Position numbers and translations under genes: made by a program. A DNA stretch of 64,000 nucleotides from Acidimicrobiia bacterium (lineage in GTDB: Bacteria > Actinomycetota > Acidimicrobiia > Spongiisociales > ZC4RG35). The notes beneath the pieces are model-generated. The model did not search any database. It was not told where the DNA came from and saw only the letters and a program-made list of their open reading frames with translations. This document shows positions 1,782 through 17,680 of this stretch, one piece after another; the stretch's first letter is position 1, and every line of letters starts with the position of its first letter. Location of the stretch: assembly GCA_036380875.1 (NCBI GenBank), contig DASVDX010000022.1, positions 15,753-79,752 on the forward strand, given 5' to 3'.

Positions 1782-2888
1782 GTGGCGTCGACAGCGGCAG
1801 TCGCTGCCGCCATCGCCGTCGCCCCCTCGCAGGGCGAGCCGCGCACCCTCGCCACCTACACCCTGGCGCCGGTGGTGGGTGCCCTGTCGCTCCTGCGGAG
1901 GCGATGGCCGCTCGGGGCGCTGCTCGTCTCGGCGGCGAGTCTCCAGATCTACAACCTGTTGGACAATCCCGGCATCTTCGCCGCCGTCCCCCTTTCGGTG
2001 ACGCTCGCTGCCGCCTGGGCGTCCGGACATCGACTGGTGTCGCTCGCCCTGGCGGTGTGGTTCGGCGTGAGCCCGGTCGTGTTCGCCCTGGTGGCCGACC
2101 TCCCGGAAGCGATGCGGACTCTGATCCTCGAGGGGGCGATTCCCGACGCAGCGCTGTTGGCTTCGGTCCTGCTGCTCGGGGAGGCCATCCGGAGCCGTCG
2201 CCAGCTGGACCGAGCCCACAACCTCCTCCTCGCCGAGCAGGACAGATCGGAGGCGCTCCTCCTCAACGTGCTTCCGGCCAGCATCGCCGACCGTCTCAAG
2301 CAGGACGAGAAAGTGATCGCCGACCAGTTCGACGACGTAACGGTGATGTTCGCCGACCTGGTGGGCTTCACCCAGGCCAGCCAGCAGGTCCGTCCCGACG
2401 AGTTGGTGGGGACGCTCGACGAGTTGTTCTCCACGTTCGACCGTCTCGTCGAACGCCACGGACTGGAGAAGATCAAGACCATCGGCGACGCCTACATGGT
2501 CGCCGGCGGGTTGCCCGACCCTAGACCCGATCATGCCGCGGCTGTTGCCGACATGGCGCTCGCACTGCGTCGCGCCGTCTCGGAGCGGGTCGACCCCGCC
2601 GGGCACCCGATGGACGTCCGGATCGGGATCGACACCGGTCCCGTGGTGGCCGGGGTGATCGGAAGACACAAGTTCGCCTACGACCTCTGGGGGGACACCG
2701 TCAACACCGCCAGCCGCATGGAATCCCACGGGGTGCCGGGCCGGATCCAAGTCACCGAGCGCACGTACCGCCGGCTGCGTGATGCGTACCTCTTCGAGCC
2801 GCGTGGACCCGTGGAGATCAAAGGGAAGGGAATCATGGACACGTGGTTCCTGCTCGGGAGATCGGGCGAAGACGAGCACGACGAATAG
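1782..2888 (+). CDS. Membrane-anchored class III adenylate/guanylate cyclase
   Basis: N-terminal about 170 aa of hydrophobic helices, then VTVMFADLVGFT...KTIGDAYMVAGG...VRIGIDTGPVVAGVIG...GDTVNTASRMES. GTG start, TAG stop at 2886-2888. Confidence 0.85.
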   Translation: MASTAAVAAAIAVAPSQGEPRTLATYTLAPVVGALSLLRRRWPLGALLVSAASLQIYNLLDNPGIFAAVPLSVTLAAAWASGHRLVSLALAVWFGVSPVVFALVADLPEAMRTLILEGAIPDAALLASVLLLGEAIRSRRQLDRAHNLLLAEQDRSEALLLNVLPASIADRLKQDEKVIADQFDDVTVMFADLVGFTQASQQVRPDELVGTLDELFSTFDRLVERHGLEKIKTIGDAYMVAGGLPDPRPDHAAAVADMALALRRAVSERVDPAGHPMDVRIGIDTGPVVAGVIGRHKFAYDLWGDTVNTASRMESHGVPGRIQVTERTYRRLRDAYLFEPRGPVEIKGKGIMDTWFLLGRSGEDEHDE

Positions 2889-2899
2889 AGGAGCCTCCA

Positions 2900-4279
2900 A
2901 TGGCCATGGCCATCGACCCCGTGTGCGGGATGAGGATCGACACCGACGATGCCGTCGCCCGCACCGAATACGAAGGAACCACGTACTACTTCTGCAGCCG
3001 GGTGTGTTACGAGGCGTTCGTCGCCGACCAGGGGCTGTACGCGATCGGGTCCGGGAGCGATCGCCTGGACGAAGAGGAGTTGGCGAAGCGCGGCTTCACG
3101 ACCCCCGAGCACGTCGCCCGGCTGGTCGAACTGGGGATCGTGGATCCGAAGGACGGAACATTCGACCAAGAGGACGTCATGCGGGTGCGGGTCGTCGCTC
3201 AGCTGCAGGAAGCAGGCATCGAGCTCGGAGCGCTGGCCGAGGCGCTACGCAGCGGCCACCTCACGCTGGGCTACATGCAGTCTTCGGCGAGGAAGCACCC
3301 GCGTTCCAAGGCGACCTTCGCCGGGGTAGCCGAAGAGATCGGGGTCGGCTTCGACGTCCTCGAACGCCTCTATCTGGCGATGGGGCTGGCGCGACCCGCC
3401 CCCGACGAGCCGGCGCGAGAAGAAGACAGGCAGGCTCTCCGGGGACTAGGGGTCTTGTTCGAGGCCGGCGTCGAGGTCGACGATGTCATTCGGATGGCAC
3501 GGCTGTGGGGAGACAGCGTCCGAAAGATCGCCCAATACGTCCCGCACTACTTCCACAACACCGTCGAGCAGCAGTACCGCAACCAGGGATTGTCCGACAA
3601 CCGGGCCTACGAGGAGGCACTACGCCAGGTCGGGTTGCGCATCGGGCGTTCCGGCGAAGACTTCCTCGGGTGGCTGTTCCGACGGCATACCGACAACTTT
3701 GCCGTCGCTCACCAGTTCGAGCACGTGGAGGCGGGTCTCGAGTTGGCCGGCGTGAGGCGGCGGTCGGAGCGGGGGATCGAGGCGGCGGTGTTCGCCGACC
3801 TGTCCGGGTTCACCGAGCTCACCGAACGTTCCGGCGACCGAGCCGCCGCCGACGTCGCCTTGTCTCTCGCCGAACTGGCCACGGAGGAGGCTGGGCGTCA
3901 TGGCGGAGAAGTCGTCAAGCTCCTCGGCGACGGTGTCCTCCTCCACCTACCTGACCCGACCGACGCCGTGCACGTCGCCCTGGCGATCGTCGACGGGGCC
4001 GACTCGTTGGGTCTTCCCCCCGCCCATGTCGGCGTCGAGGCCGGGTCGATGCTCTACGAGGGCGGCGACTACTTCGGGCGCACGGTCAACCTGGCCGCCC
4101 GCATCGCCTCGGAGGCGGGGCCGGGGCAGGTGTTCGTAGGGGAGGGGGTCGCCGCCAATGCCGCTGCCGAGGATTTCTCCCTCATCACAGCCGGTCATTT
4201 CACCCTGAAGGGCGTCTCCGGGAAGGTGGAGATCTTCGAGGTGACACGTGGCGCAACTCCGCCCCAGGGGACTGGTTGA
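2900..4279 (+). CDS. YHS/TRASH metal-binding domain + central domain + class III nucleotidyl cyclase domain protein
   Basis: N-terminus MAMAIDPVCGMRIDTDDAVARTEYEGTTYYFCSRVCYEAF matches the YHS/TRASH CGM...YYFCS..C motif. C-terminus AAVFADLSGFTEL...KLLGDGVLLH...GRTVNLAARIAS is a cyclase domain. RBS GAGGAG lies 7-9 nt upstream of the ATG at 2900. Confidence 0.85.
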   Translation: MAMAIDPVCGMRIDTDDAVARTEYEGTTYYFCSRVCYEAFVADQGLYAIGSGSDRLDEEELAKRGFTTPEHVARLVELGIVDPKDGTFDQEDVMRVRVVAQLQEAGIELGALAEALRSGHLTLGYMQSSARKHPRSKATFAGVAEEIGVGFDVLERLYLAMGLARPAPDEPAREEDRQALRGLGVLFEAGVEVDDVIRMARLWGDSVRKIAQYVPHYFHNTVEQQYRNQGLSDNRAYEEALRQVGLRIGRSGEDFLGWLFRRHTDNFAVAHQFEHVEAGLELAGVRRRSERGIEAAVFADLSGFTELTERSGDRAAADVALSLAELATEEAGRHGGEVVKLLGDGVLLHLPDPTDAVHVALAIVDGADSLGLPPAHVGVEAGSMLYEGGDYFGRTVNLAARIASEAGPGQVFVGEGVAANAAAEDFSLITAGHFTLKGVSGKVEIFEVTRGATPPQGTG

Positions 4280-4314
4280 CGGGGCGAGGGAGCCGGCTCT
4301 AAGGTGCGGCGGGT

Positions 4315-4330
4315 AATCGATTATCGAAGA
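4315..4330. promoter_or_regulatory. AT-rich palindrome AATCGATtATCGAAGA (core TCGATtATCGA) 40-55 bp upstream of the dikinase/GntR/Mo-hydroxylase operon start
   Basis: Perfect 5+1+5 inverted repeat in an otherwise 70% GC region. The identical core recurs at 13978-14000. Confidence 0.55.
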
Positions 4331-4370: not shown

Positions 4371-6158
4371 GTGGCCGACAGCAGCCCTGTGATCAAGCAG
4401 TTCCTGGGAGACGAGAGCTTCCCGATCGAGTGGGAGTCCGAAGAGGAGAAGAAGCTCTTCTGGTTCTTCGACGACCTCCACTGTCCACAGCCTCTCTCGC
4501 CCATGTACTTCGACATCGGCGGATGGTGGCTGACCTGCGATCACATGTTCCGGCGATTCGGCACCCCGTTCGCCGTCGACTGGGTCGCCAAGAACGTCAA
4601 CGGCTATCTGTACACGGCTGCCATCCCGGCGGACCCCGACGTCCGCGTCGATGCCATGGAGTACGGGTACCGCTACGTGCCGCGGGTGCCGAAGGACGAC
4701 CCCAACTACGCCGCCGAGATGGGCGCCTACCTGAACGCCGTGCTCCCGGTGTACGGCCAGCACTTCGCCGACTGGTGGGAGAACCGCCTCGTCCCGGAGA
4801 TGAAGCGGAACTTCGCCTACCTCGAGGAGAAGATCGACAACTGGCAGGACATCTCTCTGATGGAGTGGGCGACGATCCTCGAGGACGCCATCGACATCCA
4901 CGATCGCCACTGGAAGATCCACTGGATGCTCAACTTCGCCCAGTTGTCCGCCACCTTGAACCTCGAGGCGACGATGCGCGAGGTGAAGGGTGAGGTAGAC
5001 CCGGAGATCCTCGGCCGCCTGCAGAACTCCGCCAAGGACCGCAACTGGGACTCGATCGAGGCCCTGTGGAAGATGAAGGAGGAGATCGTCGCCGACGAGG
5101 AGCTGTCGACGATCTTCGCCCGTGAGACCGGTGTCGACGTGATGGCGGCGCTCGAGGCCTCAGAGCGCGGCCGCCGCTTCATCGAGGAGCGACTCCGCCC
5201 CTACCAGCGCGAGTTCGGCTGGCATTCGGTGTGGAGCCACGAGTTCATCTTCCCCACTCGCTTCGAGCGTCCCGAGCCGATCCTCGAGGTGATCAAGGGC
5301 TACATCGAAACCGACTACGACTACCCGGCGCGGGTGGAGGAGCTGAGAAAGGACATCGAGGAGGCGTCCCGGCAGCTGCTCGAAGGCCTCGAGGGCGAAG
5401 CCCTCGAGAAGTTGCGGGCGGCGAACGAGATCAACCTGAAGATGGCGCCGCTCACGCCCGACCACCACTTCTACATCGACCAGGGCACCAACGCCCATCT
5501 CCGGGTCGTGCTGGTCTGCATCGGCCGAAAGCTCGTCGAAGCCGGTCATCTCGACGACCCCGAGGACGTGATCTTCCTGCGCTACAACGAGTTGCGCCGG
5601 TTCATGGCCGACCCGGAGAACTTCGACGCCCGCAGCATCGTGTCACAGCGCAAAGACGAGAGGGAGGCGGCCTACGACATCCGGCCCCGGGACTGGATCG
5701 GCACGGCCACGGAGCAGGCCCTCTCGTTCCCGTACCTCGGCCTGTGGGGCTTCCCCGAACGCCTGTACATGGAGCAGCCGGAAGCCGAGGACCAGGTCAA
5801 CGGCCTCGCGGCTTCTCCCGGCGTCGTCACCGGCACGGCCAAGGTCGTGTTGAGCGTGGACGAGTTCGACCAGGTCGAGAAGGGCGACATCCTCGTCTGC
5901 CAGATGACGAACCCGGCGTGGGTGGTGCTCTTCACCAAGATCTCCGGCCTCGTCACCGACGCGGGAGGCACCGCCTCGCATCCTGCCGTTCTCGCCCGCG
6001 AGTTCGGGATCCCCGCGGTCATCGGAACGTCCGTCGCCACGTCGCGGATCGAGTCGGGAGACAAGTTGCGCGTGAACGGATCGACCGGTGTGGTGGAGAT
6101 CCTCGGCGCCGACCACCAGGAGCGCGAGGCCCCCGCCAGCGACCTGTTCACTACATGA
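4371..6158 (+). CDS. PEP-synthase-like dikinase large subunit: about 480-aa N-terminal domain plus C-terminal PEP-utilizing swivel phospho-His domain (PpsA-like / RPH RD+HD-like)
   Basis: C-terminal motif GLVTDAGGTASHPAVLAREFGIPAVIGT is the PEP-utilizers mobile domain with the catalytic His. GTG start with RBS GGAGAGGAGG. Stop overlaps the GntR start (ATGA). Confidence 0.85.
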   Translation: MADSSPVIKQFLGDESFPIEWESEEEKKLFWFFDDLHCPQPLSPMYFDIGGWWLTCDHMFRRFGTPFAVDWVAKNVNGYLYTAAIPADPDVRVDAMEYGYRYVPRVPKDDPNYAAEMGAYLNAVLPVYGQHFADWWENRLVPEMKRNFAYLEEKIDNWQDISLMEWATILEDAIDIHDRHWKIHWMLNFAQLSATLNLEATMREVKGEVDPEILGRLQNSAKDRNWDSIEALWKMKEEIVADEELSTIFARETGVDVMAALEASERGRRFIEERLRPYQREFGWHSVWSHEFIFPTRFERPEPILEVIKGYIETDYDYPARVEELRKDIEEASRQLLEGLEGEALEKLRAANEINLKMAPLTPDHHFYIDQGTNAHLRVVLVCIGRKLVEAGHLDDPEDVIFLRYNELRRFMADPENFDARSIVSQRKDEREAAYDIRPRDWIGTATEQALSFPYLGLWGFPERLYMEQPEAEDQVNGLAASPGVVTGTAKVVLSVDEFDQVEKGDILVCQMTNPAWVVLFTKISGLVTDAGGTASHPAVLAREFGIPAVIGTSVATSRIESGDKLRVNGSTGVVEILGADHQEREAPASDLFTT

Positions 6159-6865
6159 CCGCAGAACGAGACGAAATCGAGCGAGACGACTTCGGACGCG
6201 AGGACCTCAACCGCGAGGTCCTCAGCGTTCAGGTGAAGGACCGGATCCTGCAGTGGATCATGGAGGGCGAGTTGCCGCCAGGCTCCCGCATCGTCGAGAC
6301 GCGGGTGGCCCGCCGCCTCGGGGTCAGCCAGGCCCCGGTCCGGGAGGCGCTGAGGGACCTCGCCAGCGTCGGCATCGTCCAGGTGGAGCCCTATAGGGGA
6401 GCGTTCGTTCGCGAGCCGAGCCGTGAGGAGCTCGTCGAGGCGATGACCCTGCGGGGGGAGCTCGAAGCGCTCGGCGCCCGATGGGCGGTGGAGCGCATCA
6501 CCGACGAGGACCTGGCCGAACTGCGGTGGCTGATCGGCGCCATGGAGGAAGCCGCCGAAGCCCACGACACCCACGCTCACGCCCTCCACAACACGAGATT
6601 CCACCAGCGGATCATGGAAGCCTCCGGCAATCGCTCGTTGTTGTGGGTGTGGTCGCTCCTCGAGCCCATGGCCCGCACCTACTACACGGCCGCCGTGTCG
6701 GGGGCAGACCTCGGCTGGCTCGGCCGCCGGCACGTAGCGATTCTCGAGGCGCTCGAGTCCCGTGACGCCGAGAAGGTGGCCGACGTGATGCGGGCCCACG
6801 CCATGGAGGCCGAAGAGATCGTTCTGTCCCACTACCCCGACACTGAAGGAGGAGACCCGCGGTGA
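6155..6865 (+). CDS. GntR-family (FadR/FCD subfamily) transcriptional regulator
   Basis: N-terminal wHTH (VETRVARRLGVSQAPVREALRDL) followed by an all-helical FCD-like C-terminal domain. 4-bp overlaps with both neighbouring genes (ATGA upstream, GTGA downstream). Confidence 0.85.
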   Translation: MTAERDEIERDDFGREDLNREVLSVQVKDRILQWIMEGELPPGSRIVETRVARRLGVSQAPVREALRDLASVGIVQVEPYRGAFVREPSREELVEAMTLRGELEALGARWAVERITDEDLAELRWLIGAMEEAAEAHDTHAHALHNTRFHQRIMEASGNRSLLWVWSLLEPMARTYYTAAVSGADLGWLGRRHVAILEALESRDAEKVADVMRAHAMEAEEIVLSHYPDTEGGDPR

Positions 6866-7806
6866 CCACCCAGGCAGACGCCATCCTGTGGTTCGACCAC
6901 GCCGACTGCCGGCGTGTCGAAGTCGCCGGCGGCAAGGGTGCCAGCCTGGCATCGATGACCGCCTTGGGGCTCCCGGTTCCGCCTGGATTCCTGGTGCCGG
7001 CTTCGGCACTCGACCGGGCGCTGCACCAATCCGGCCACGCCTCCGAGATGCTCTCGGTCCTCTCCTCGATCAAGGGGGAGAACGACGTCGAGCCCGCCTC
7101 GGAGCAGCTGCAGAGGCTCGTGCTGGACTCCCCGATCACCGGAACGCTGGCCGAAGCCATCGCCGATGCCTACGAGAGCCTCGATCAGGGCGGCGGGGTG
7201 GCGGTCCGCTCGAGCGCCTGTGCCGAAGACGGGGAGGTGGCCAGTTACGCCGGCCAGCAGGACACCTACCTCAACGTGAGAGGCGCCGACCAGGTGCTCC
7301 ACTACGTCAACCGTTGCTGGGCCTCGTTCTTCGGGACCCGTGCCCTCTTCTACCGCCGTCTCAAGGGGTCGCTCCAGGACCTGGGGATGGCCGTCGTCGT
7401 TCAACGCCAACTCGACGCCGACAAGGCGGGCGTCATGTTCACGATCGACCCGGTTCGGCGCCGCCGCGACCAGCTTCTCATCGAGGCGGCGTGGGGCCTG
7501 GGCGAGGCTGTCGTCTCCGGGGCGGTGATCCCTGACCAATACATCGTGGCCCGGGACGGCCGGCTCAAGAAGGCGCAGGTGTCGCGCCAGGACAAGATGG
7601 TCGTGCGCCGGGCCGACGGAGGGACGGAAGAGGTCGAGCTCTCCGAGGATCAGGCGACCAGCCAGGTCCTGGACGAAGCCGAACTGTCCCAGCTCGTCGA
7701 GCTGGGGCTGCGGGCCGAAGAGATCTTCGGCGGTCCCCAGGACGTGGAGTGGGCGTTCGAGAACGGAAGCCTCTACCTCCTCCAGTCCCGCCCTGTGACC
7801 GCCTGA
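6862..7806 (+). CDS. Pyruvate-phosphate-dikinase N-terminal (PPDK_N, ATP-grasp, PEP/pyruvate-binding) domain protein; dikinase ATP-binding subunit (PpsB-like / RPH AD-like)
   Basis: VEVAGGKGASLASM...GFLVPASAL...VAVRSSACAEDGEVASYAGQQDTYLNV...GVMFTIDP...QDVEWAF matches the PEP-synthase N-terminal ATP-binding domain. GTG start overlaps the GntR stop. Confidence 0.85.
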   Translation: MTTQADAILWFDHADCRRVEVAGGKGASLASMTALGLPVPPGFLVPASALDRALHQSGHASEMLSVLSSIKGENDVEPASEQLQRLVLDSPITGTLAEAIADAYESLDQGGGVAVRSSACAEDGEVASYAGQQDTYLNVRGADQVLHYVNRCWASFFGTRALFYRRLKGSLQDLGMAVVVQRQLDADKAGVMFTIDPVRRRRDQLLIEAAWGLGEAVVSGAVIPDQYIVARDGRLKKAQVSRQDKMVVRRADGGTEEVELSEDQATSQVLDEAELSQLVELGLRAEEIFGGPQDVEWAFENGSLYLLQSRPVTA

Positions 7807-7808
7807 TC

Positions 7809-8648
7809 GTGTTCGGTTACGCCCGACCCGAGTCACTTCCCGAAGCCCTCGAGCTCGTCGGCGCCGGGGCCCGCCCGCTCGCCGGCGGCACCGATCTCTT
7901 GGTCGGTCTGAGAAAAGGCAAGTTCACCGCGGACCGGGTGGTCGACCTGAAGGCGATCACGGAGCTCCAGCCAGCGATCTACGAGACCCATGGCGGTTGG
8001 GAGATCACCGCCGGCACGGTGATGAGTGACATCGTCGACCACCCGGGCGTCCGGGCGAGATATCCGGCGCTGGTCCAGGCGGCATCTGCGGTCGGCTCTA
8101 TCCAGATCCGCAACCGGGCGACGCTGGCCGGCAACGTGTGCAACGCCTCTCCCGCCGCCGACACGGCTCCGCCGCTCCTCGTCTACGACGCCTCCGTCGT
8201 GGTCGCGGGGGCCGACGGCGAGCGCACGATCTCGCTCGTCGACTTCTTCGTGGGTCCCGGCCAGACAGCCCTCCTCCCCGGCGAGCTGGTGACCCGTCTG
8301 GTGCTGCCGCCTCCCACACGGTCCGCCGCGTTCGCCCGCCTCACCCGGCGGCGAGGCGTCGACCTGGCGACGGTGAGCGTGTGCTGCGGGGTGGGTGACG
8401 ACGGCAGTGTCCGCTTCGCCCTCGGCGCCGCCGGACCGCGGCCGCTCGTGGTGGAGGACACAAGCGGGACGTTGGCGGACCCCGCCGCTCCGGAAGGGGA
8501 TGTCAGCGGCCGCATCGGCGAGCTCCTCGCAGTCGCCACTCCGATCTCCGATGTTCGCGCCGGCGCCGACTACCGCCGGGCGATGCTCGAAGTCCTCGCC
8601 CACCGGACTCTCGAGGCAGCGTTGGCCCAGAGGGAGGAGCGGCGATGA
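7809..8648 (+). CDS. Xanthine dehydrogenase family FAD-binding (medium, CoxM/XdhB-like) subunit
   Basis: FGYARPESLPEALELVG...AGGTDLLV and FAD-binding molybdopterin dehydrogenase motifs. GTG start 2 nt after the PPDK_N stop. Confidence 0.85.
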   Translation: MFGYARPESLPEALELVGAGARPLAGGTDLLVGLRKGKFTADRVVDLKAITELQPAIYETHGGWEITAGTVMSDIVDHPGVRARYPALVQAASAVGSIQIRNRATLAGNVCNASPAADTAPPLLVYDASVVVAGADGERTISLVDFFVGPGQTALLPGELVTRLVLPPPTRSAAFARLTRRRGVDLATVSVCCGVGDDGSVRFALGAAGPRPLVVEDTSGTLADPAAPEGDVSGRIGELLAVATPISDVRAGADYRRAMLEVLAHRTLEAALAQREERR

Positions 8649-9121
8649 CCCCGCAGACGATGAACATCACCCTGGTCGTCAACGGCCAGCACCATTCCCT
8701 CGACGTCGCCGTCCATCACTCGCTGCTCGACGTGCTCCGCAACGACCTGGACCTGACCGGGACGAAGGAGTGCTGTGCCGAAGGCGAGTGCGGCGCCTGC
8801 ACGGTGCGGATGGACGAAAAGGCCGTCAACGCCTGCCTGGTCCTCGCCGTGGAGGCCGACGGAAGAGACATAACCACCATCGAAGGTCTGGCGACTGAAG
8901 ACCATCTGAGCCCGGTGCAGCAGGCCTTCCTCGAGGAGGGGGCGGTCCAATGCGGCTTCTGCATCCCGGGAATGGTCATGTCGGCCGCCTATCTCCTCGA
9001 ACACAACGACGCGCCCACCGAGGAGGAGATCCGCGAAGCCCTCTCCGGCAACCTGTGCCGGTGCGCCGGCTACAAGCGGATCGTGCGGGCGGTGCAGCGG
9101 GCGGCGGAGGCGGGTAGATGA
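8645..9121 (+). CDS. (2Fe-2S)-binding small subunit of xanthine dehydrogenase family enzyme
   Basis: Cys motifs CAEGECGACTV and CGFC...CRCAGY. ATGA overlap upstream. Confidence 0.9.
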   Translation: MTPQTMNITLVVNGQHHSLDVAVHHSLLDVLRNDLDLTGTKECCAEGECGACTVRMDEKAVNACLVLAVEADGRDITTIEGLATEDHLSPVQQAFLEEGAVQCGFCIPGMVMSAAYLLEHNDAPTEEEIREALSGNLCRCAGYKRIVRAVQRAAEAGR

Positions 9122-11379
9122 CGACAGGAAACGTCGGCCGGCCCGCAGGACGCATCGGCGGACTCGACCGGGTCACCGGCCGCCAGCGTTACGTTGCCGA
9201 CCTCCGCCTCGACGACGCCCTCCACGTGAAGCTCGTGACGCTGCCCTGTGCCCGGGCCTGGATCGTGGACATCGACACGTCGAAGGCATGGGAGGTGCCG
9301 GGCGTGCGGACGATCTTCACCGCCGCCGACCTGCCGGACCCCATGCCCCGCTACGGAGTCCACTACGACGACCGTCCCGTCCTGGCGGTGGGCGAGACCA
9401 AGTTCCACGGCGAGCCCGTGGCGGCGGTGGCCGCCGACACCCTCGACGCCGCCCAGCGAGCCGCCGCCCTCGTGCAGGTCCAGTACGAGGAACTGCCCCC
9501 GGTCCTCGATGTGCGGGCTGCCCTCGACCCGGCGGCGCCGCTCGTCGTCGATCCCGTCCTGCGACCCGACGACCCTCTGGCGTCCACCAACATCCGCCGA
9601 GAGTTCCGTTACGCCTGGGGCGACGTCGACACGGCCACCGCGGACCTGGTGATCGAGAACACCTACACGTTCCCGATGGTCACCCATTTCGCCATCGAGC
9701 CGCACGGGTTCGTAGTCGCCGCCGACGAATCAGGCGTGACCGTGTGGAGTTCCATCCAGCACCCCTACATCCTCCAGCGGGTCATGGCCCGGGTCCTCGG
9801 GTTGCCGCTGTCGAGAGTGAGGGTCATCGCCCCCGACCCCGGCGGGGCATTCGGCGGGAAGGGCTACCCGAAATTCGAGCCTCTCCTGGCCTACATGGCC
9901 ATGGCCACCGGCCGCCCCTGCCGCCTCGTGCTCACGCTCGATGAGACGTTCCAGGCGGTGCGCCGCAACAACGCCGAGGTTCGTATACGCACCGGTTTCG
10001 ACTCCGACGGCACGATCCGCTTCCAGGACATCGAAGCCGACTTCCTGATGGGAGCCTACGTCGACATCTCTGCCCGGGTGATCTCGAAGAGCAGCCACCT
10101 CGCTGCCGGTCCCTATCGCGTCCCCAACGCCCGCATCCTCGCCCGGGCACTGCATTCCCACACCCCGCCGAGCACGGCCATGCGCGGCTTCGGCACTCCT
10201 CAGTTCAGCTGGGCCCTCGAGCAGCAGATGGACGAGGCCGCCCGTCGCCTCGACATGGATCGACTGGAGATCCGCCTCCGCAACCTCGCCCGCAAGGGCG
10301 AAGAGTTCATCCCGGGAGACACCCCCGCCGACGGCGACTGGTTCGAGTCGGTCCGGAGAGCTGCCGACGCCATCGGCTGGGGTGAGCCTCTACCCGACGG
10401 CCGGGGGAGAGGGCTGGCCGTCGGCATCAAGTCCTCCGCGACGGCCGGGGCGGCCTACTCCATCCTGCGTTTCCTCTACGACGGGAGCGTGTTCGTGCTC
10501 GTCGGCACGTCCGACATGGGTCAGGGAGCGCGCACCATCCTCACTCAGATCGTCTCCGACGAACTGGGTGTGCCGCCCGAAGCCGTCAACGTCGTCATGG
10601 GCGACACCGCCGCGGCACCCTTCGATTACTCGACATCGGCGAGCCGCTCCACCGTTTTCATGGGCGGGTCGGTGATGCGCGGATGCGCCGAGTTGAAAGA
10701 CCAAGTTCGAGAGATGGCCGCCCGCCTGCGCGGCTGCGAGCCAGAGGAGATCGAGATCGACCGGGGCGTGGTCACGTTCCCCGGCGGCGAGCAGAAGGGG
10801 ATCGTCGAGGTGGTCCAAGAAGGACTAGGCGCCGTCGGCGGCGAACTGATCGCCGTCGGGCTGATGCGGGGGGAGGCGGACCCGAATCACCCGATCGGGG
10901 GAAGGCCGTGGTTCTACGAGTTCAACTGCACGGCGGTCGAACTGGAAGTCGACCGCCGGACGGGCGAGGTTCTCATCCACAAGCATGTCACCGTGGCCGA
11001 CGTCGGAAAGGCCATCAACCCCCAGCACGTGGAGAGCCAGGACGAAGGGGCGGCGATCATGGGATTGGGGCACACGCTCATGGAGCACCTGGTGCTCGAC
11101 GAGCACGGGAGGATCGTGAACCTGGGAGCGCTCGACTATCGGATCCCCACCACCAAGGACATGCCGCTCGACCTCGAGTCGATCATCGTCGAAAACGGCG
11201 ACGGGCCCGGACCTCACGGCGCCAAGGGAGTGGGTGAGGGAGGGCTCTTGTGCGTCGCCGCCGCGGTCGCTTCGGCGGTGACCGACGCGACTGGCGTTGT
11301 GATCCGCGACTTGCCGCTCACCCCCGAGCGGATCTGGCGGGCGATCAACGAGGTCACACGGTCCGAGGTTTCTCCCTGA
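9118..11379 (+). CDS. Molybdopterin-binding large subunit of xanthine dehydrogenase / aldehyde oxidoreductase family enzyme
   Basis: 753 aa with an a/b hammerhead N-terminus, PDPGGAFGGK and AMRGFGTPQ active-site region. ATGA overlap with the FeS subunit. Confidence 0.9.
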   Translation: MTTGNVGRPAGRIGGLDRVTGRQRYVADLRLDDALHVKLVTLPCARAWIVDIDTSKAWEVPGVRTIFTAADLPDPMPRYGVHYDDRPVLAVGETKFHGEPVAAVAADTLDAAQRAAALVQVQYEELPPVLDVRAALDPAAPLVVDPVLRPDDPLASTNIRREFRYAWGDVDTATADLVIENTYTFPMVTHFAIEPHGFVVAADESGVTVWSSIQHPYILQRVMARVLGLPLSRVRVIAPDPGGAFGGKGYPKFEPLLAYMAMATGRPCRLVLTLDETFQAVRRNNAEVRIRTGFDSDGTIRFQDIEADFLMGAYVDISARVISKSSHLAAGPYRVPNARILARALHSHTPPSTAMRGFGTPQFSWALEQQMDEAARRLDMDRLEIRLRNLARKGEEFIPGDTPADGDWFESVRRAADAIGWGEPLPDGRGRGLAVGIKSSATAGAAYSILRFLYDGSVFVLVGTSDMGQGARTILTQIVSDELGVPPEAVNVVMGDTAAAPFDYSTSASRSTVFMGGSVMRGCAELKDQVREMAARLRGCEPEEIEIDRGVVTFPGGEQKGIVEVVQEGLGAVGGELIAVGLMRGEADPNHPIGGRPWFYEFNCTAVELEVDRRTGEVLIHKHVTVADVGKAINPQHVESQDEGAAIMGLGHTLMEHLVLDEHGRIVNLGALDYRIPTTKDMPLDLESIIVENGDGPGPHGAKGVGEGGLLCVAAAVASAVTDATGVVIRDLPLTPERIWRAINEVTRSEVSP

Positions 11380-12277
11380 CCGCCGCCGGCGGCTCGTCCA
11401 ACGGAACCAGCGTTCGCTGACGCTTCTCGAAACGCAGCCGATGGGTGTACCCCGCCTCGCGGGCGGCAGCCACCACCTCGGCATGACCCCAGGCGGCGTC
11501 GGCGGGCACGTGGGCGTCCGAGGCCAGCGTGATCGGAACACCGGCGTCGTGGAACATCTTCAGAAACCTCGGTCCCGGGTAGACCTCGGCAGCGGCCCGG
11601 CTCAGTCCGGCACTCGAGATCTCCACCGCGGTGCCGGTGGCGACGGCACCCTCGACGACCGGCTCGTAGAGGTCGTCGATGGGCCCATCGGGCCGGTAGC
11701 CGTTGCGCTTGATGATGTCGGCGTGAGCCAGCACGTCGACCATGCCGGAGGCGGCGAGCTGGGCCTCGAGGGCGAAGTACTGCTCGTAGACGGTCCGCAC
11801 GCCGCGGCGGGCGAACTCCTCGGCCACCAGGAATCGGTCGAACGACCAGGCGCCGATCCAGTGAACGGAGCCGATCAAGTAGTCCCAGGGGTAGTCGGCC
11901 AGCAGTTCGAGGACGGCTTCTTCGGTCCCGGGCTGGAAATCGACCTCGAGTCCCAGCTTCACGGGCAGCCCCCTGTCCTTGGCGTCGAGGACGACCTCGA
12001 CATATCGGTTGAGGGAGAGATTGCGCTCCTGGCGGATGAGATCGATCGCCCCGGCCCGCAAGTCCGGGTTGGGCTCGGACTCCCACCACTCGCCCAGCAC
12101 CGGCGCCGACTCCACACACCGGTAGAAGTGCTCGGTGAACCCCAACTCGGTGACACCCCTCTCCAGGGCGTGCTCCACGTACCGGTCGATATAGCCGGGC
12201 GGGTACTCGCCCGGCGGGGGAGCGTCCGAGCTGGGCCGATGGGTGTGGGGATGGAGGTGGAGGTGGTAGTCGCTCAT
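11354..12277 (-). CDS. PHP-family phosphatase (histidinol-phosphatase HisK-like)
   Basis: MSDYHLHLHPHTH...GFTEHF...LGLEVD...GSVHWI...ASDAHVP are the PHP-domain metal-binding His/Asp motifs. Confidence 0.8.
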   Translation of the reverse strand: MSDYHLHLHPHTHRPSSDAPPPGEYPPGYIDRYVEHALERGVTELGFTEHFYRCVESAPVLGEWWESEPNPDLRAGAIDLIRQERNLSLNRYVEVVLDAKDRGLPVKLGLEVDFQPGTEEAVLELLADYPWDYLIGSVHWIGAWSFDRFLVAEEFARRGVRTVYEQYFALEAQLAASGMVDVLAHADIIKRNGYRPDGPIDDLYEPVVEGAVATGTAVEISSAGLSRAAAEVYPGPRFLKMFHDAGVPITLASDAHVPADAAWGHAEVVAAAREAGYTHRLRFEKRQRTLVPLDEPPAAVREKPRTV

Positions 12278-12299: not shown

Positions 12300-13154
12300 T
12301 CACCCCTGTGTGAACTTGTCGTACAGGGAGGCGGCGTTGAGCGTCTGGATGTGGTCCATCATGTACTCCTGGCCGATGTCGACGGGGTAGCGATCCCGGA
12401 AGTGGACCCGCTCGATCGTCTCCTCCCGGCTCCAGCCCTTGGCCACCGCCGCCGCCACGGCTGCCTTCCACTCGAGGAGGACCGAGCGCTGCACCGCCAG
12501 ATAGCTCAGGTCAGTCACCTCCCCGTGCCCGGGCACCAAGTACTCGACATCCAGTTGGCGGATGCGTTCCAGTGCGGCGAGCCACTGGTCGACGTCGGAG
12601 GTCATCAGCCATGTCTGGCAGTCCTTGAACACCGTGTCGCCGGTGAACACCACCCGCTCCTCGGGCACGTAGACGGCCACCTGGCCGGGAGTGTGGCCGG
12701 GGGTGTGGAGCAGTTGGAAGGTGCGGTCGCCGACGTGGAGAGTCAGGTCTCCGGTGAACACGATGTCGCCCTTGTTGGGGTCGGCGTAGTAGGTGTCCCG
12801 GTCGGGGAAGATCGCCTCTCCTTCGGGGTCGTCGGTGGGGATCGCCTCGAGGGCGTAGGCGTAGGGGTCGAGATCGGGCGTCGGGACCATGAAATTGTCG
12901 TAGACCCCCTTGTGGTGGACGACCTGGCCGGCGCCTTTGAAGAAGTAGTTCCCGAAGATGTGGTCGACGTGGTGCTCGGTGTTGATCAGGTAGCGGATCG
13001 GCCCATGGGACTCGGCTTCCTCCCGCATGGCGACAGCCCGGGTCGGCAACTGGGGGGTGTCGATCACGACCACCCCGTCGGAGGTCACCACGTAGCTGGG
13101 GTTGCAGCCACGCAGCGTGGTGTTCGTGTAGACCCGGTCGGTAACTCGTTGCAT
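12300..13154 (-). CDS. MBL-fold metallo-hydrolase
   Basis: HHVDHIFGN and HTPGHTPG motifs. ATG (MQRVTDRV) preceded by an AGGAGA RBS. The long N-terminal extension in the ORF track was rejected as low-complexity. Confidence 0.8.
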   Translation of the reverse strand: MQRVTDRVYTNTTLRGCNPSYVVTSDGVVVIDTPQLPTRAVAMREEAESHGPIRYLINTEHHVDHIFGNYFFKGAGQVVHHKGVYDNFMVPTPDLDPYAYALEAIPTDDPEGEAIFPDRDTYYADPNKGDIVFTGDLTLHVGDRTFQLLHTPGHTPGQVAVYVPEERVVFTGDTVFKDCQTWLMTSDVDQWLAALERIRQLDVEYLVPGHGEVTDLSYLAVQRSVLLEWKAAVAAAVAKGWSREETIERVHFRDRYPVDIGQEYMMDHIQTLNAASLYDKFTQG

Positions 13155-13177: not shown

Positions 13178-13963
13178 TCACTGGGTGGCCGTGAGGCCGC
13201 CGTCGATCGTCAATATCTGTCCGGTGATGAACGACGAGGCGTCGGAGCAGAACAACAGGGTGGCTCCGATCAGGTCCTCGGTCACGCCCACCCGCCGGAG
13301 CGGGATCCGGTTCACGAGGCGGGCCTTGAACTCGGGATCGTCGAGGAGCATCGCCACCTGGGGGGTGTCGACGAAGGTGGGCGAGATGGCGTTGACGGTG
13401 ATCCCGTAGCGGGCCCATTCGGTGGCCCATTGCCGGGTGAGGGAGTCGATGGCGCCTTTCGCCGCCACGTAGGCGGAGTAGCCGGCGTCGATTCCCAACT
13501 GGCCGCGGACCGAGGAGATGTTGAGGACGCGGCCACCCCGGCCCCCGTCGATCATCGCCTTGACCGCCGCCTGGGTGGGGAGGATGGTGGAACGGACATT
13601 GAGCTCGAAGATCCAGTCCCAGGCGTCCCGGGGGTACTCGTGGGCTGAATAGAGGACCTTCCCGGCGCCGCCGCCGACTGCGTTGACGATTATGTCCACC
13701 CGCCCGAACTGGTCGAGGGTCTCGTCGATGGCGCGCTGCGCCTCCTCTTCGGACGTCATGTCCCCGACCACCCCGTGGGCGCGGGCGCCATCGGCGACCA
13801 ACGACTTCGTGACCTCCTCGACCGTCTCGGGAGTGCGGCCGATGATCGTCACCGCCGCCCCCGCCTCGGCCAGTCCCGCCGCCAGGGCGGCGCCTATGGC
13901 GCCGTTTCCGCCCGGGACGACCGCCACGCGTCCTGTCAGGTCGAACCTATCCAGGTGCCCCAT
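13178..13963 (-). CDS. SDR-family oxidoreductase
   Basis: GGNGAIGAALA Rossmann motif, NAVG, and the S...Y..AAK catalytic triad region. RBS GGAGGA. Confidence 0.85.
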   Translation of the reverse strand: MGHLDRFDLTGRVAVVPGGNGAIGAALAAGLAEAGAAVTIIGRTPETVEEVTKSLVADGARAHGVVGDMTSEEEAQRAIDETLDQFGRVDIIVNAVGGGAGKVLYSAHEYPRDAWDWIFELNVRSTILPTQAAVKAMIDGGRGGRVLNISSVRGQLGIDAGYSAYVAAKGAIDSLTRQWATEWARYGITVNAISPTFVDTPQVAMLLDDPEFKARLVNRIPLRRVGVTEDLIGATLLFCSDASSFITGQILTIDGGLTATQ

Positions 13964-13977
13964 CGCTCCTCCGTGAG

Positions 13978-14000
13978 AAATGATCGATTATCGAGAATGA
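13978..14000. promoter_or_regulatory. Second copy of the palindrome (ATGATCGATtATCGAGAATGA) 15-37 bp upstream of the SDR/MBL/PHP-phosphatase operon (minus strand)
   Basis: Same TCGATtATCGA core as the 4315-4330 site. Lies just upstream of the GGAGGA RBS of the SDR gene. Confidence 0.55.
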
Positions 14001-14034
14001 CCCTACCCGGCGGATGTCGTGCCGGTCAAGGGAG

Positions 14035-15033
14035 TCAGGTCTCGCCCGTCACCCGGGCGTAGGCGGCGGCGACGAACACGATCATCGCCCCGAAGAGGAT
14101 CTGGCGGAGAGCCTCCGGGTACCCGAGCGAGGTGAGGAGGGAGGAGATCACGGTGAGGATGAGGGCACCGATGATCGTGCCGCCGTATCCGCCTCGGCCA
14201 CCGAGGATCGAGGTGCCGCCGATCACCGCCGCTGCCACCGAGGGGAGGAGGGAGGTGTCGACCAGTGTCACGCTCGCCACGTTGGTGAGCCCGGAGTAGA
14301 GGAACCCGGCGATCCCGGCGAGCACGGCCGAGATGACGTAGAGGACGATCAGCACCTGCCACGCCTTCACTCCGGCCAGGCGGGACGCCACCGGGTTGTC
14401 GCCGATGGCATAGAGGAGGCGCCCGTAACCGGTGCGGTTGAGCGTGATCAGCACCCAGGCGGCGACGGGGATGAAGACCACGAGGCTGTACGGGACGATG
14501 CCCTCGACCATGCCCGCCCCGAGACGGCGGAACAGGTCCGGCACGCCGGCGCCGGTCTGCACCATCTCCAACTGCCACACGTTGGCGAGGCCCAAGACGA
14601 CCAGGCTCATGCCGAGGGTCATGATCAGCGGGTGCACGCGGAACACGCCGACGCCGATGCCGTTGATGAGACCGGCGACGGCCGCCGCCGCCAGCGCAAC
14701 GGCGATCCCCACCCACAGCCCGGGGCCGTTGACCAGCGTCGCCACCACGAACCCGGACATCGAGGCGATGGCCGCCACCGACAGGTCGATGCCGCCGGTG
14801 AGCATCGTCATCGTCTGGCAGGCGGCGAGGATGGCCAGCGGGATGGCCGTCCGCACCATCACGCCCGCCCAGTTGAGGCTGACGATGCCGGGGCGGATGA
14901 TCTCGCTGAGGATCACGAGCAGGACCAGGATCACGAGCAAGGGGATGATCGGCCGCTCGCGGAACACCTTCACCCACGCCGACGGACGGAACCAGGAGGT
15001 GCGGGCTTCAGGAGTCGTTTCGGCGACGGTCAT
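14035..15033 (-). CDS. Sugar ABC transporter permease (CUT2 / RbsC-like)
   Basis: 332-aa polytopic protein with the AIGDNPVASRLAGV signature of ribose/xylose-type permeases. The track ORF was trimmed to the MTVAETTPE start. Confidence 0.8.
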   Translation of the reverse strand: MTVAETTPEARTSWFRPSAWVKVFRERPIIPLLVILVLLVILSEIIRPGIVSLNWAGVMVRTAIPLAILAACQTMTMLTGGIDLSVAAIASMSGFVVATLVNGPGLWVGIAVALAAAAVAGLINGIGVGVFRVHPLIMTLGMSLVVLGLANVWQLEMVQTGAGVPDLFRRLGAGMVEGIVPYSLVVFIPVAAWVLITLNRTGYGRLLYAIGDNPVASRLAGVKAWQVLIVLYVISAVLAGIAGFLYSGLTNVASVTLVDTSLLPSVAAAVIGGTSILGGRGGYGGTIIGALILTVISSLLTSLGYPEALRQILFGAMIVFVAAAYARVTGET

Positions 15034-16034
15034 CGGCGGCTCCTCCGCAACTGGATGAGGCTGCCCACCATGACGACCCCCACCAGGATGAAACCCTGCA
15101 CCACGGTGGCCAGGTTCGTGTTCACGTTGAGGAAGGTCATGATCGTGCGCAGCAGCGAGAGGATCACGACGGCGACGATCGGCCCGAAAACGCCGCCTCG
15201 GCCGCCGCTCAGGCTGACACCGCCGAGCACGACAGCGGCGACGCTCATCAGGGTGTAGGGGCCGGGGACCGGCGTGGCGATGCCGGTGGTGGCGGTGAGG
15301 CTCAGCCCGCCGAAGGCGGAGAACAGGCCGGTGAGCATGTAGGCGAAGATCTTCGTACGGCCCACCGAGATCCCGCTGCGAAACGCCGCCAGTGGCTCGC
15401 TGCCGATGGCGTAGAGGGACAGCCCCAATCGGGACCGCCGGATGGGCAGCCAGATCACGGCGACGATCAGGAGCATGACCACCGCCGCCTTCGGGATCCA
15501 GCTGCTGAGGAGCGGCCCGCTCGTGAGGCTGCGCAGCCATTGAGCGGAGGCGCCCCCCGGCGTTTCCATGACGAGGAGGGCGCATCCGGCCCACACGAAC
15601 AGCATCGCCAGGGTCACGACGATGTCCGGTACCCGGGTGACGACGATGAGCGTCCCGTTGACGGCTCCGAGCAGCAATCCGAGCAGCAGGACACCGAGGA
15701 CGATGCCGATGGCTGCGGTTTCGCTGCGGCCCTCCATCAGGGCGGCGGAGACGACGCTGGTCAGCGCCATCATCGAGCCGACCGAGAGGTCTATGCCTCG
15801 AGCGATGACCACCACCGCCTGGGCCACCGAAGCCAACGCCAGCGGCATCACCGAGATGGCCAGACCCTGGATTCCGGAGGCTCCGAACGTCGGCTGGATC
15901 GCTTTCGTGATCAGAAGGAGCACGGCGAGGATCCCGAGAAGGCTGATCGTCCATCCACTGCGGCGCAGGGCCGACACCAACGACGTCGACCACCCCGCCG
16001 AGGCTCGGGCGGAGGTAGATACGGCGGCGCTCAC
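15030..16034 (-). CDS. Sugar ABC transporter permease (CUT2 / RbsC-like), second permease
   Basis: Hydrophobic 334-aa protein with the AIGSEPLAAFRSGISV signature. 4-bp overlaps with its neighbours. Confidence 0.8.
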   Translation of the reverse strand: MSAAVSTSARASAGWSTSLVSALRRSGWTISLLGILAVLLLITKAIQPTFGASGIQGLAISVMPLALASVAQAVVVIARGIDLSVGSMMALTSVVSAALMEGRSETAAIGIVLGVLLLGLLLGAVNGTLIVVTRVPDIVVTLAMLFVWAGCALLVMETPGGASAQWLRSLTSGPLLSSWIPKAAVVMLLIVAVIWLPIRRSRLGLSLYAIGSEPLAAFRSGISVGRTKIFAYMLTGLFSAFGGLSLTATTGIATPVPGPYTLMSVAAVVLGGVSLSGGRGGVFGPIVAVVILSLLRTIMTFLNVNTNLATVVQGFILVGVVMVGSLIQLRRSRR

Positions 16035-17605
16035 GAGGGTGCCTCCTCTTCCTCGTCGGTCTCAGGGCCCAGCGGCACTGTTGTCGTCTCGCTGACCGCC
16101 TCGGCCATCTCCTTTTCGGTGCCGATGTTGTGGGCCGCCTTGAGGAGCGTCGGCTCGTCGGCGTGCCGGGCGTCCACCTCCCCGACGACCTCGCCACCGA
16201 AGATGACTATGGCGCGGTCGCAGACGAGCGGGATCTCGCTCAGCTCGGACGTATAGAGGAGGATCGCCGCTCCCGAGTCGGCCAGTTCCCGCAGCAGGAC
16301 GTATATCTGGTTCTTCGTTCGGATGTCGATGCCGCGGGTCGGGTCGAAGCACAGCAACGTCTCGACGCCGGAGGCCACCCAGCGGGCGATAGTCACCTTC
16401 TGCTGGTTGCCGCCCGACAGGCGACGGACCTCGCCCTGGGCCCGGGTGTCGATCTGGAGTTTCTCGATGGAGTGGGAGACCGTCTGATGCTCCTTCTTCT
16501 TCCTGATCCAACCCCATCGTGGTAGCCGGCTGGAGAAGGGGAGGGCGATGTTCTCGCGCACGGAGCGCTGCATCAGAAGCGCCTCGGCGCGGTCGGCCGG
16601 GACGAAGACGAGACCGGCCCGGATGGCGTCGGCGGGATGGCGGAACGACACCTGCTGTCCGTTGACGAAGATCTCCCCGGAGTGGGGTCGTTCCCATCCC
16701 GAGAGCACGTCGAACAACTCGTCCTGGCCCTGCCCTTCCAGGGCGACGACGCCCAGGACCTCACCTTCGTAGAGGTCGAAGGACACGTCCTTGAGACGGG
16801 TGTTGAGAGCCAGGTTGCGCACCGACACCCGGGGGGTGTGCTTGCGCTGCTCCGGAGCGACCACATGATGACGTTCGGCGAGAGCCTCCTGCTGGTCGAC
16901 CGCTTCGCCGAGCATCAACTCGACGATGCGCTCGGCCGAGCCCTCGCCCACGTCCACCACTCCCACCGTCTCGCCCTCCCGCAGGACCGTGGCGCGGTCG
17001 CACACCGACCCGATCTCGGTCATGCGGTGGGAGATGAAGATCACGCTGCTCGAGCCGCCCCGCATCCGGTTGAGGACCTCCAGTACCCGCTCGGTGAGGT
17101 TTGCCGGGAGGGCGGCGGTCATCTCGTCCAGCATCAGGACGTCGGGATCGATCGCCAGGGCTCGAGCGAGGTCGATGATGCGCAGTGATGCCAGCGGCAG
17201 GGTGCGGGCCATCGCCGACAGATCTAGGTCGGGCAATCCGAGCTCTTCGAGCCAGTGGCGGAAAGGTTCGATCGGCGTCTCCGTGAGACGCAAGTTGGAG
17301 AAGATGTCGAGGTCGGGGATCAGGGCGGGCTCCTGGTACACGGACACGAGGCCGCCCCGCCGGGCCTCGGCGGGAGAATGAGCGGTCCTCTCTCGTCCCC
17401 GGACCATGATCGTGCCGCCGTCGGGGCGCACCGCTCCGGTCAGGATCTTGACGAGGGTGCTCTTGCCGGCGCCGTTCGCTCCCATCAGCGCGTGGACCTC
17501 GCCCGGGCGGACGGCCAGAGAAGCCGAGCGCAAGGCCACGACGGCGCCGTAGTGCTTGGAGATGTCTTGAGCGTGGAGCAGGTAGTCGGTGGTGGTCGTT
17601 GTCAT
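16031..17605 (-). CDS. Sugar ABC transporter ATP-binding protein with duplicated NBD (RbsA/XylG-like)
   Basis: Two Walker A motifs (GANGAGKST, and the second NBD) plus LSGGNQQK and LSGG signatures. 524 aa. Confidence 0.85.
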   Translation of the reverse strand: MTTTTTDYLLHAQDISKHYGAVVALRSASLAVRPGEVHALMGANGAGKSTLVKILTGAVRPDGGTIMVRGRERTAHSPAEARRGGLVSVYQEPALIPDLDIFSNLRLTETPIEPFRHWLEELGLPDLDLSAMARTLPLASLRIIDLARALAIDPDVLMLDEMTAALPANLTERVLEVLNRMRGGSSSVIFISHRMTEIGSVCDRATVLREGETVGVVDVGEGSAERIVELMLGEAVDQQEALAERHHVVAPEQRKHTPRVSVRNLALNTRLKDVSFDLYEGEVLGVVALEGQGQDELFDVLSGWERPHSGEIFVNGQQVSFRHPADAIRAGLVFVPADRAEALLMQRSVRENIALPFSSRLPRWGWIRKKKEHQTVSHSIEKLQIDTRAQGEVRRLSGGNQQKVTIARWVASGVETLLCFDPTRGIDIRTKNQIYVLLRELADSGAAILLYTSELSEIPLVCDRAIVIFGGEVVGEVDARHADEPTLLKAAHNIGTEKEMAEAVSETTTVPLGPETDEEEEAPS

Positions 17606-17637
17606 CGGGTGGTCGAGGCGATCGTTACGGCTGGGAA

Positions 17638-17665
17638 GAAGGGGCCGCCTCTCGGCGGCCCCTTC
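17638..17665. terminator. GC-rich hairpin (12-bp perfect stem GAAGGGGCCGCC / GGCGGCCCCTTC, 4-nt loop) between the sugar SBP and ATPase genes; an intra-operon attenuator or mRNA-stabilising stem-loop
   Basis: Perfect inverted repeat in the 75-bp gap downstream of the SBP gene. No long U-tract, as expected in high-GC genomes. Confidence 0.5.
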
Positions 17666-17680
17666 CTGTTCGGCGTCTGA

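Follow-up and report, generated by a model that had tools for sequence, protein, structure and literature searches.

A split dikinase encoded with a molybdenum hydroxylase and a GntR regulator in an Acidimicrobiia genome

The two-component dikinases HpeHI, CreHI, PpsAB and AcvAB, described in 2025, are built from a subunit with a substrate domain of the rifampin phosphotransferase (RPH) type and a swivel domain, and from a separate ATP-grasp subunit (PMC12167813). Their dikinase His is pyrophosphorylated from ATP, the gamma phosphate is lost and the beta phosphate is passed to a phenolic hydroxyl group; all characterised representatives catalyse the first step of their pathway (PMC12167813). 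Dikinase genes have also been found next to those of molybdenum (Mo) enzymes. The four-component 3-hydroxypyridine dehydrogenase of Ensifer adhaerens HP1 works only with the adjacent PPDK-like and phosphoenolpyruvate (PEP)-utilizing genes, and knock-out of either dikinase gene abolishes growth (bioRxiv 10.1101/2020.01.08.898148). In Desulfatiglans anilini, the pps-alpha/beta genes and those of 4-hydroxybenzoyl-CoA reductase (4-HBCR) are located in one cluster (PMC6114531). Here, a related arrangement is described in a 64,000-nt stretch of DNA from an Acidimicrobiia bacterium (GenBank assembly GCA_036380875.1, contig DASVDX010000022.1, positions 15,753 to 79,752), hereafter the window. It encodes a split dikinase (DikA and DikB), a GntR regulator and a three-subunit Mo enzyme of the xanthine dehydrogenase (XDH) family.

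These genes form a compact six-gene operon (Table 1). An earlier note on this DNA had listed the coordinates and domains of the six open reading frames (ORFs) and their five junctions, and all were recovered by Pfam searches and direct reading of the sequence. An ATGA overlap joins DikA to the GntR gene and a GTGA overlap joins the latter to DikB, which bears out the claim of a regulator gene lying between the dikinase genes with stop and start codons overlapping on both sides. A gap of 2 nt followed by GTG separates DikB from the gene of the FAD-binding subunit, and ATGA overlaps recur at the junctions between the genes of the FAD-binding, iron-sulfur (FeS) and Mo subunits. DikA, DikB and the FeS gene each have a Shine-Dalgarno-like sequence in front of them. 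In the window, which has a G+C content of ~67%, the G+C content at third codon positions (GC3) is 0.83-0.92 for the ORFs that passed the filter, namely DikA, DikB, the three XDH-family ORFs and their neighbours; the GntR ORF is missing from this list, as the script gives only a longer, upstream-extended ORF (5231-6865). The gene calls of L004, a metagenome contig 93% identical to the window, have the same lengths and spacings and support the boundaries independently. An assembly frameshift as the origin of the split is ruled out: the split is found in about a dozen independent metagenome-assembled genomes (MAGs) and in the cultured Thermomicrobium roseum, and a frameshift could not yield such an order of modules.

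The swivel domain of DikA (PF00391, residues 503-573, E 9e-24) is its sole match in the local Pfam copy. The protein contains GGTASHPAVLAREFGIPAVIGT. The swivel domain follows an RPH-type substrate-binding domain at about residues 1-480, and in the precomputed annotation of all close DikA homologs PF27448 (Rph_4th) lies N-terminal to PF00391. The best PDB sequence match is the RPH of Listeria, aligned from the end of the rifampin-binding domain into the swivel domain. Among solved structures, this enzyme alone (RPH-Lm; PDB 5fbs, 5hv1) shows similarity to DikA outside the swivel domain, at ~20% identity, and the significant fold matches of the AlphaFold2 (AF2) model of DikA are six RPH structures only (E 6e-13 to 5e-10, ~470 columns). 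The three modules and the swivel-His phosphotransfer mechanism are alike in both systems, but RPH is a single chain with the order ATP-grasp, substrate and His domain and acts in antibiotic resistance, whereas the window encodes a split enzyme. The catalytic His537 of DikA is part of TDAGGTASH and is invariant in 16 homologous sequences. DikA thereby carries, within ~60 residues of its C terminus, the motif T/SxxGGxxxH by which dikinases are defined (PMC12167813), and the Ser preceding the catalytic His is shared with PpsA and CreH (PMC12167813).

The PPDK_N domain of DikB spans residues 20-313, and over its full length the protein can be aligned to the ATP-grasp domains of PEP synthase, of RPH and of a 387-aa stand-alone chain. 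No Pfam match to the PEP/pyruvate TIM barrel (PF02896) was obtained in DikA or DikB. The profile searches confirm a PEP-utilizers domain in DikA and PPDK_N in DikB and, together with the PDB and fold matches, they uphold the proposal that an RPH-like dikinase is divided here into a substrate+His half (DikA) and an ATP-grasp half (DikB). Membership in three described families was considered and rejected. DikA and DikB score 108 and 287 bits against the PEP synthase model NF005057 (cutoff 598), and 125 and 270 bits against the RPH model NF041857 (cutoff 999); matches to the NCBIfam models of PigC/RedH are partial and far under the cutoffs. The lack of a TIM barrel was a further ground for the rejection.

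In HpeHI (Rhodococcus), AcvAB (Sphingobium), CreHI (Corynebacterium) and PpsAB (Thauera), a ~600-aa RPH-type large subunit with a C-terminal swivel His likewise works with a separate ATP-grasp subunit of 31-40 kDa, and as in the window there is no TIM barrel. By sequence, DikA and DikB are placed among these described two-component small-molecule dikinases, as a separate, deeper clade. The characterised large subunits share ~45% pairwise identity, a level that DikA does not reach, and DikB is 37% identical to the B subunit of an Acv/Hpe-type cluster on a Rhizobium leguminosarum plasmid. Unlike the four known systems, the window has a GntR gene inserted between the subunit genes and lacks a PpsC-like third subunit; its partner enzyme is a Mo hydroxylase, whereas those of the known dikinases are a biotin carboxylase, a P450 or a UbiD carboxylase. 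By the letters of their names, the large-subunit genes of pps, cre and hpe come before those of the ATP-grasp subunit. The R. leguminosarum cluster has the order large subunit, ATP-grasp, biotin carboxylase genes and HAD phosphatase. The substrate+His-first order of the window, presented in the earlier note as an undescribed permutation, is therefore not a new one.

A pattern scan in which each species was represented by a single genome found DikA relatives in at least 535 species genomes. The best 80 of these relatives are 64-95% identical to the window DikA and belong to Acidimicrobiia, Chloroflexota (Limnocylindria), Acidobacteriota, Gemmatimonadota and Proteobacteria MAGs; the nearest relatives of the window are MAGs of Acidimicrobiia with 93-95% protein identity. 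A search of a representative library with the N-terminal domain of DikA returned mostly fragments and few full-length, divergent relatives. Gene neighbourhoods were counted over the 66 informative loci among the best 80, each with at least 3 kb downstream of DikA, and the six-frame ORFs of the loci were searched with the window proteins and the proteins of one gammaproteobacterial locus. XDH-family genes are present near DikA in 64 of the 66 loci (97%), in Acidimicrobiia, Chloroflexota, Acidobacteriota and Gammaproteobacteria. The linkage of dikinase and Mo enzyme, for which a neighbourhood check had been proposed, is therefore not a matter of chance, and the two constitute a conserved functional unit. 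The pairing itself is not new, since it has been published already (bioRxiv 10.1101/2020.01.08.898148; PMC6114531). The suggested pathway, in which an aromatic or N-heterocyclic compound is phosphorylated and is oxidised by the Mo enzyme, agrees with the published case of 3-hydroxypyridine.

A GntR gene lies directly 3' of DikA in 47/66 loci. When the 80 genome loci and the window are taken together, the stop codon of DikA and the start codon of an adjacent GntR gene share 4 nt in 15 of 51 cases; most of the non-overlapping pairs are no more than ~20 nt apart, and few are further. Embedding of the regulator between the dikinase subunits is frequent, with 10 of the 14 loci of the DikB type, but not universal. 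The gene that follows GntR in the majority of relatives does not encode an ATP-grasp protein. A stand-alone ATP-grasp gene is found in 9/66 loci, grouped in a single clade by a neighbour-joining tree of DikA, and in most of the loci without it the slot after GntR holds a protein of ~292 aa with no Pfam match. A second type of ATP-binding gene encodes a long PPDK-type protein of 704-714 aa, with PPDK_N, PEP-utilizers and ~250 unassigned C-terminal residues. Over the loci with at least 8 kb downstream (9 + 47 = 56), this long gene occurs in none of the nine with a stand-alone DikB versus 37 of the 47 without, and an ATP-binding gene is nearby in 46/56. The mutual exclusivity of the two forms suggests that a gene for an ATP-binding partner is usually close to DikA. 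In T. roseum and several other relatives DikA is flanked by genes of UPF0261, the family to which the aromatic kinase MarK belongs (PMC12624787), a setting in keeping with the phosphorylation of aromatic compounds.

The regulator matches PF00392 (60 bits) and PF07729 (90 bits), both above the cutoff. Upstream of its operon, a perfect 10-bp palindrome, TAATCGATTA, is located 48 nt before the DikA start, and a copy with one mismatch lies in the 39-nt gap between a permease gene and the gene of a short-chain dehydrogenase/reductase (SDR), at the head of a second, convergent operon. With up to two mismatches, the 12-bp palindrome ATAATCGATTAT has only these two matches in the 64-kb window. With up to one mismatch, it has 67 sites in 1.32 Mb of related loci versus 0.2 from shuffles, and 30 of the 67 are within 400 nt upstream of DikA. 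The palindrome occurs in 40 of 53 loci with a GntR gene versus 2 of 18 without one (Fisher p = 2e-6). In T. roseum, AGAATCGATTCT, a palindrome with a AATCGATT core, is located 40 nt upstream of the GntR gene. From this operator pattern and its co-occurrence with GntR, the embedded regulator is predicted to be the probable autorepressor of both convergent operons, DikA-GntR-DikB-Xdh and SDR-MBL-PHP. A promoter and terminator scan and an Rfam search gave nothing informative.

The active-site loop AMRGFGTPQ is present in the Mo subunit, as had been noted. This subunit keeps the hydroxylase-type Gln in GFGTPQ (GHGTVD in HcrA) and the catalytic Glu of a C-terminal GVGEGG. Its best PDB match is HcrA (1rm6) with 326 bits, the next one scoring 241 bits, and HcrCAB is its closest solved relative; no NCBIfam equivalog cutoff is reached by the Mo subunit. 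The FAD-binding subunit has three Cys only and lacks the [4Fe-4S] insert of HcrCAB. Among the window ORFs scanned with Pfam, which were selected by GC3, there is one enoyl-CoA hydratase and no UbiD carboxylase, CoA ligase or maleamate-pathway enzyme. An oxidative hydroxylase or dehydrogenase is favoured by sequence over a reductive dehydroxylase, because the Gln is kept, the [4Fe-4S] insert is absent and neither a UbiD carboxylase nor a CoA ligase was found. A reductase of the 4-HBCR type was rejected for the same Gln and the three Cys, and for scores under the cutoffs: the Mo subunit obtains 458 bits against TIGR03194 (cutoff 995), and the FAD-binding subunit aligns to the 4-HBCR beta model in two separate segments, with 117 bits (cutoff 405). 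In the pps-hcr cluster of D. anilini, dikinase and XDH-family genes stand together as in the window, among whose scanned ORFs there is no CoA ligase or UbiD carboxylase.

Taken together, the window probably encodes a two-component, ATP-dependent small-molecule dikinase that acts with the Mo enzyme and a partner operon under repression by GntR, a reading that we hold with moderate confidence. The domains, the linkage and the operator correlation are direct observations; what we infer are the reactions, their sequence and the kind of substrate (phenolic or hydroxy-N-heteroaromatic). DikB would bind ATP, and His537 of the DikA swivel domain would take up phosphate from it. The swivel domain would then hand the phosphate to a hydroxyl group of the substrate in the RPH-type domain of DikA, with a phosphoester, AMP and Pi as the expected products. 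The phosphorylated compound is most likely the substrate of the co-transcribed Mo enzyme, as inferred for 3-hydroxypyridine dehydrogenase, and this enzyme would oxidise the phosphoester. The SDR, a metallo-beta-lactamase (MBL)-fold hydrolase and a PHP-domain phosphoesterase may process and dephosphorylate the product. The FCD-type GntR protein would sit on ATAATCGATTAT-like operators and keep both operons repressed, to be released when it binds a metabolite of the pathway. A PHP phosphoesterase or a low-molecular-weight phosphatase (LMWPc) accompanies some of the clusters, and by analogy such phosphatases would fit the phosphorylate-transform-dephosphorylate logic of the Cre, Hpe and Acv pathways.

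Several observations weigh against this proposal. No NCBIfam model cutoff is reached by the dikinase proteins, and AF2 predicts the structure of DikA poorly (pLDDT 62). The similarity of DikA to the A subunit of the R. leguminosarum Acv/Hpe-type cluster (33% identity) covers the C-terminal 234 residues only. No phosphorylated intermediate was detected in the Ensifer study (bioRxiv 10.1101/2020.01.08.898148), and a recognisable phosphatase is present in a minority of the loci (PHP in 10/66, LMWPc in 3/66). Furthermore, the best matches of the SDR are gluconate 5-dehydrogenases and the binding protein of the neighbouring ABC transporter is of the sugar type (Peripla_BP_4), so that the substrate need not be aromatic.

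The order of the two reactions is not fixed by the conserved linkage. The Mo hydroxylase might act first, and DikAB would then phosphorylate the new hydroxyl or lactam for the MBL-fold enzyme or a later step. The MBL-fold and SDR genes are the commonest accessory genes near DikA (40/66 and 33/66 loci), which would suit such a route, as would the missing phospho-intermediate in Ensifer. Yet in Ensifer 3-hydroxypyridine was not converted with the hydroxylase genes unless the dikinase genes were present as well (10.1101/2020.01.08.898148), a requirement that fits phosphorylation before or during hydroxylation, and the characterised two-component dikinases all act first in their pathway (PMC12167813). 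We consider the reverse order unlikely.

Quite unlikely, in our view, is a scheme in which the phosphate protects a phenolic hydroxyl or serves as a handle there, and the Mo enzyme, together with alcohol dehydrogenases, acts on a side chain as an aldehyde oxidoreductase and not on the ring as a hydroxylase. It has a precedent in the Cre pathway, cited both in PMC12167813 and in the Ensifer preprint. A Zn-alcohol dehydrogenase gene adjoins the Mo genes in 19/66 loci, an SDR is nearly always close, and aldehyde oxidoreductases of the XDH family are among the matches of the Mo subunit. The window cluster, however, contains no Zn-alcohol dehydrogenase, and its Mo subunit scores lower against the PaoC/aldehyde oxidoreductase models than against those of HcrA and XdhA.

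The D. anilini cluster (PMC6114531) and the lead of HcrA among the solved relatives of the Mo subunit would also be in line with anaerobic phenol degradation, DikAB being a phenylphosphate synthase and the Mo enzyme a reductive dehydroxylase like 4-HBCR. We regard this as very improbable given the low TIGR03194 score, the conserved Gln of GFGTPQ, the three Cys of the FAD-binding subunit without a [4Fe-4S] insert, and the lack of a UbiD-type carboxylase or CoA-ligase Pfam domain among the GC3-selected ORFs of the 64-kb window. Finally, PEP synthase, RPH and PigC/RedH models do appear among the partial NCBIfam matches, but a PEP synthase, rifamycin-resistance enzyme or PigC-like ligase lying by accident beside an unrelated Mo enzyme is hardly credible, with scores far below the cutoffs, no TIM barrel, and XDH-family genes linked across phyla, neighbourhood statistics that effectively refute it.

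Table 1. Genes and predicted operators of the two convergent operons in the window, with neighbouring and comparison genes. Coordinates refer to the window unless preceded by a locus name.
Feature	Coordinates	Strand	Remarks
Predicted GntR operator 1	4313-4324	.	GTAATCGATTAT; 47 nt upstream of DikA start codon
DikA, dikinase large subunit	4371-6158	+	595 aa, GTG start; PF00391 PEP-utilizers swivel domain
GntR regulator, FadR subfamily	6155-6865	+	236 aa; PF00392 helix-turn-helix and PF07729 FCD
DikB, stand-alone ATP-grasp subunit	6862-7806	+	314 aa; PPDK_N only, E 6e-89
FAD-binding subunit, XDH family	7809-8648	+	279 aa; PF00941 FAD_binding_5 and PF03450 CO_deh_flav_C
Two-[2Fe-2S] subunit	8645-9121	+	PF00111 Fer2 and PF01799 Fer2_2
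Molybdopterin-binding catalytic subunit	9118-11379	+	PF01315 Ald_Xan_dh_C, PF02738 MoCoBD_1, PF20256 MoCoBD_2
PHP-domain phosphoesterase of the HisJ-like histidinol-phosphatase subfamily; candidate for the dephosphorylation	11354-12277	-	PF02811
MBL-fold hydrolase	12300-13154	-	PF00753; start revised to ATG 13154, 284 aa
SDR	13178-13963	-	PF13561, PF00106
Predicted GntR operator 2	13980-13991	.	ATGATCGATTAT; 17 nt upstream of SDR start
ABC transporter	14003-18895	-	Pfam: two permeases, double ATPase, Peripla_BP_4 binding protein
Long PPDK-type gene, examples	L040:16344-18455, L060:17002-19143		

The genes of the Mo subunit and of the PHP protein are convergent and share 26 nt at their 3' ends (11354-11379), compared with 29 nt in L004. 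The PHP protein scores 224 bits against NCBIfam NF005596, over the cutoff of 202, and loci with a PHP gene near the cluster include some from Chloroflexota. A 284-aa product is also called for the MBL-fold gene of L004, matching the revised start. The ABC transporter genes are located upstream of the SDR-MBL-PHP genes in the same direction, an arrangement kept in L004; relatives use a different transporter type, with Peripla_BP_6. It is a possible uptake system, and whether it belongs to the cluster is uncertain. Vitamin B6 catabolism, with the SDR as pyridoxal dehydrogenase and the MBL-fold protein as 4-pyridoxolactonase, was considered for the second operon and found unsupported, as the MBL-fold protein obtains 29.9 bits versus a pyridoxolactonase cutoff of 325 and the SDR is closest to gluconate 5-dehydrogenases.

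Directly upstream of DikA, two genes with adenylate/guanylate-cyclase domains are found (window 1782-4279, +), and the product of the second also has a YHS domain at its N terminus and a regulatory domain. As the two genes are kept only in the relatives that are 93-95% identical, they probably have nothing to do with the cluster. Further along the window (26719-27885, +), a full-length DUF993 protein (597 bits) is encoded amid LacI regulators and ABC transporters. Genes for the E1 alpha and beta subunits of a 2-oxoacid dehydrogenase are located at the far end (61927-63962, +) and also immediately upstream of the cluster transporter genes in the gammaproteobacterial locus (L001:589-2558); their presence in both may be coincidental.

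The Ensifer 3hpd cluster (HpdA1-4 with orf9/orf10) resembles the window in that split dikinase genes adjoin an XDH-family Mo enzyme, and a GntR regulator and an ABC transporter are found in both. The 3hpd GntR gene, however, is located on the other side of the hydroxylase genes, whereas that of the window stands between the dikinase genes. The Mo enzyme of the window has three subunits, while a separate SRPBCC subunit (HpdA3) belongs to 3hpd; no Pfam match to SRPBCC/CoxG was obtained among the cluster ORFs or the other window ORFs scanned. The maleamate-pathway genes hpdBCDE are absent from the window cluster, in which the accessory genes are SDR, MBL and PHP. By gene content, orthology with 3hpd is not supported, the SRPBCC subunit and the maleamate-pathway genes both being missing.

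The closest cultured relative found is the cluster on the megaplasmid of T. roseum DSM 5159 (NC_011961.1, TRD_RS09580-09660; L085, 56-73 kb), and no other close homolog was found in the plasmid collection. Like the window, it encodes DikA (48.7% identical), a stand-alone DikB (49% identical), GntR and the Mo, FeS and FAD subunits of an XDH. Unlike the window, it has a scrambled gene order and additional cyclase, Tm-1-like/UPF0261, PEP-hydrolase-like, FAH and ABM genes. Its ABC transporter is of the branched-chain type.

A split dikinase and its pairing with a Mo enzyme are thus already known in kind. The novelty lies in the clade, which is uncharacterised, branches deeply and is very widespread, and in which a regulon signature of its own goes along with ATP modules that can be exchanged. 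Phosphorylation as the opening of aromatic catabolism has been recognised as widespread only recently (HpeHI and MarK, both 2025), and the 3-hydroxypyridine report of 2020 left unexplained why a Mo hydroxylase depends on a dikinase. The present data indicate that the pairing is not the curiosity of one soil isolate, as it is strongly conserved in hundreds of mostly uncultured species from soil, freshwater and the sea. The compact six-gene operon, the cultured T. roseum and a predicted operator with its repressor, from which the inducer and hence the substrate might be found, offer entry points.

More tentatively, dikinase and Mo hydroxylase might form a general, ancient module whose Mo-dependent oxidation strictly requires that the substrate be phosphorylated, used widely by uncultured Acidimicrobiia and Chloroflexota and with an exchangeable ATP-donor part. 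If this possibility is true, the role of the phosphate could be that of a handle for binding or of an activator by electronic effects. The ATP donor would be either a stand-alone ATP-grasp protein, as in the window and some other lineages, or a long PPDK-like protein together with a kinase-like protein lacking Pfam matches, of the PEP carboxykinase/HPr-kinase fold. Uncultured Acidimicrobiia and Chloroflexota would then use the module to consume an abundant environmental compound.

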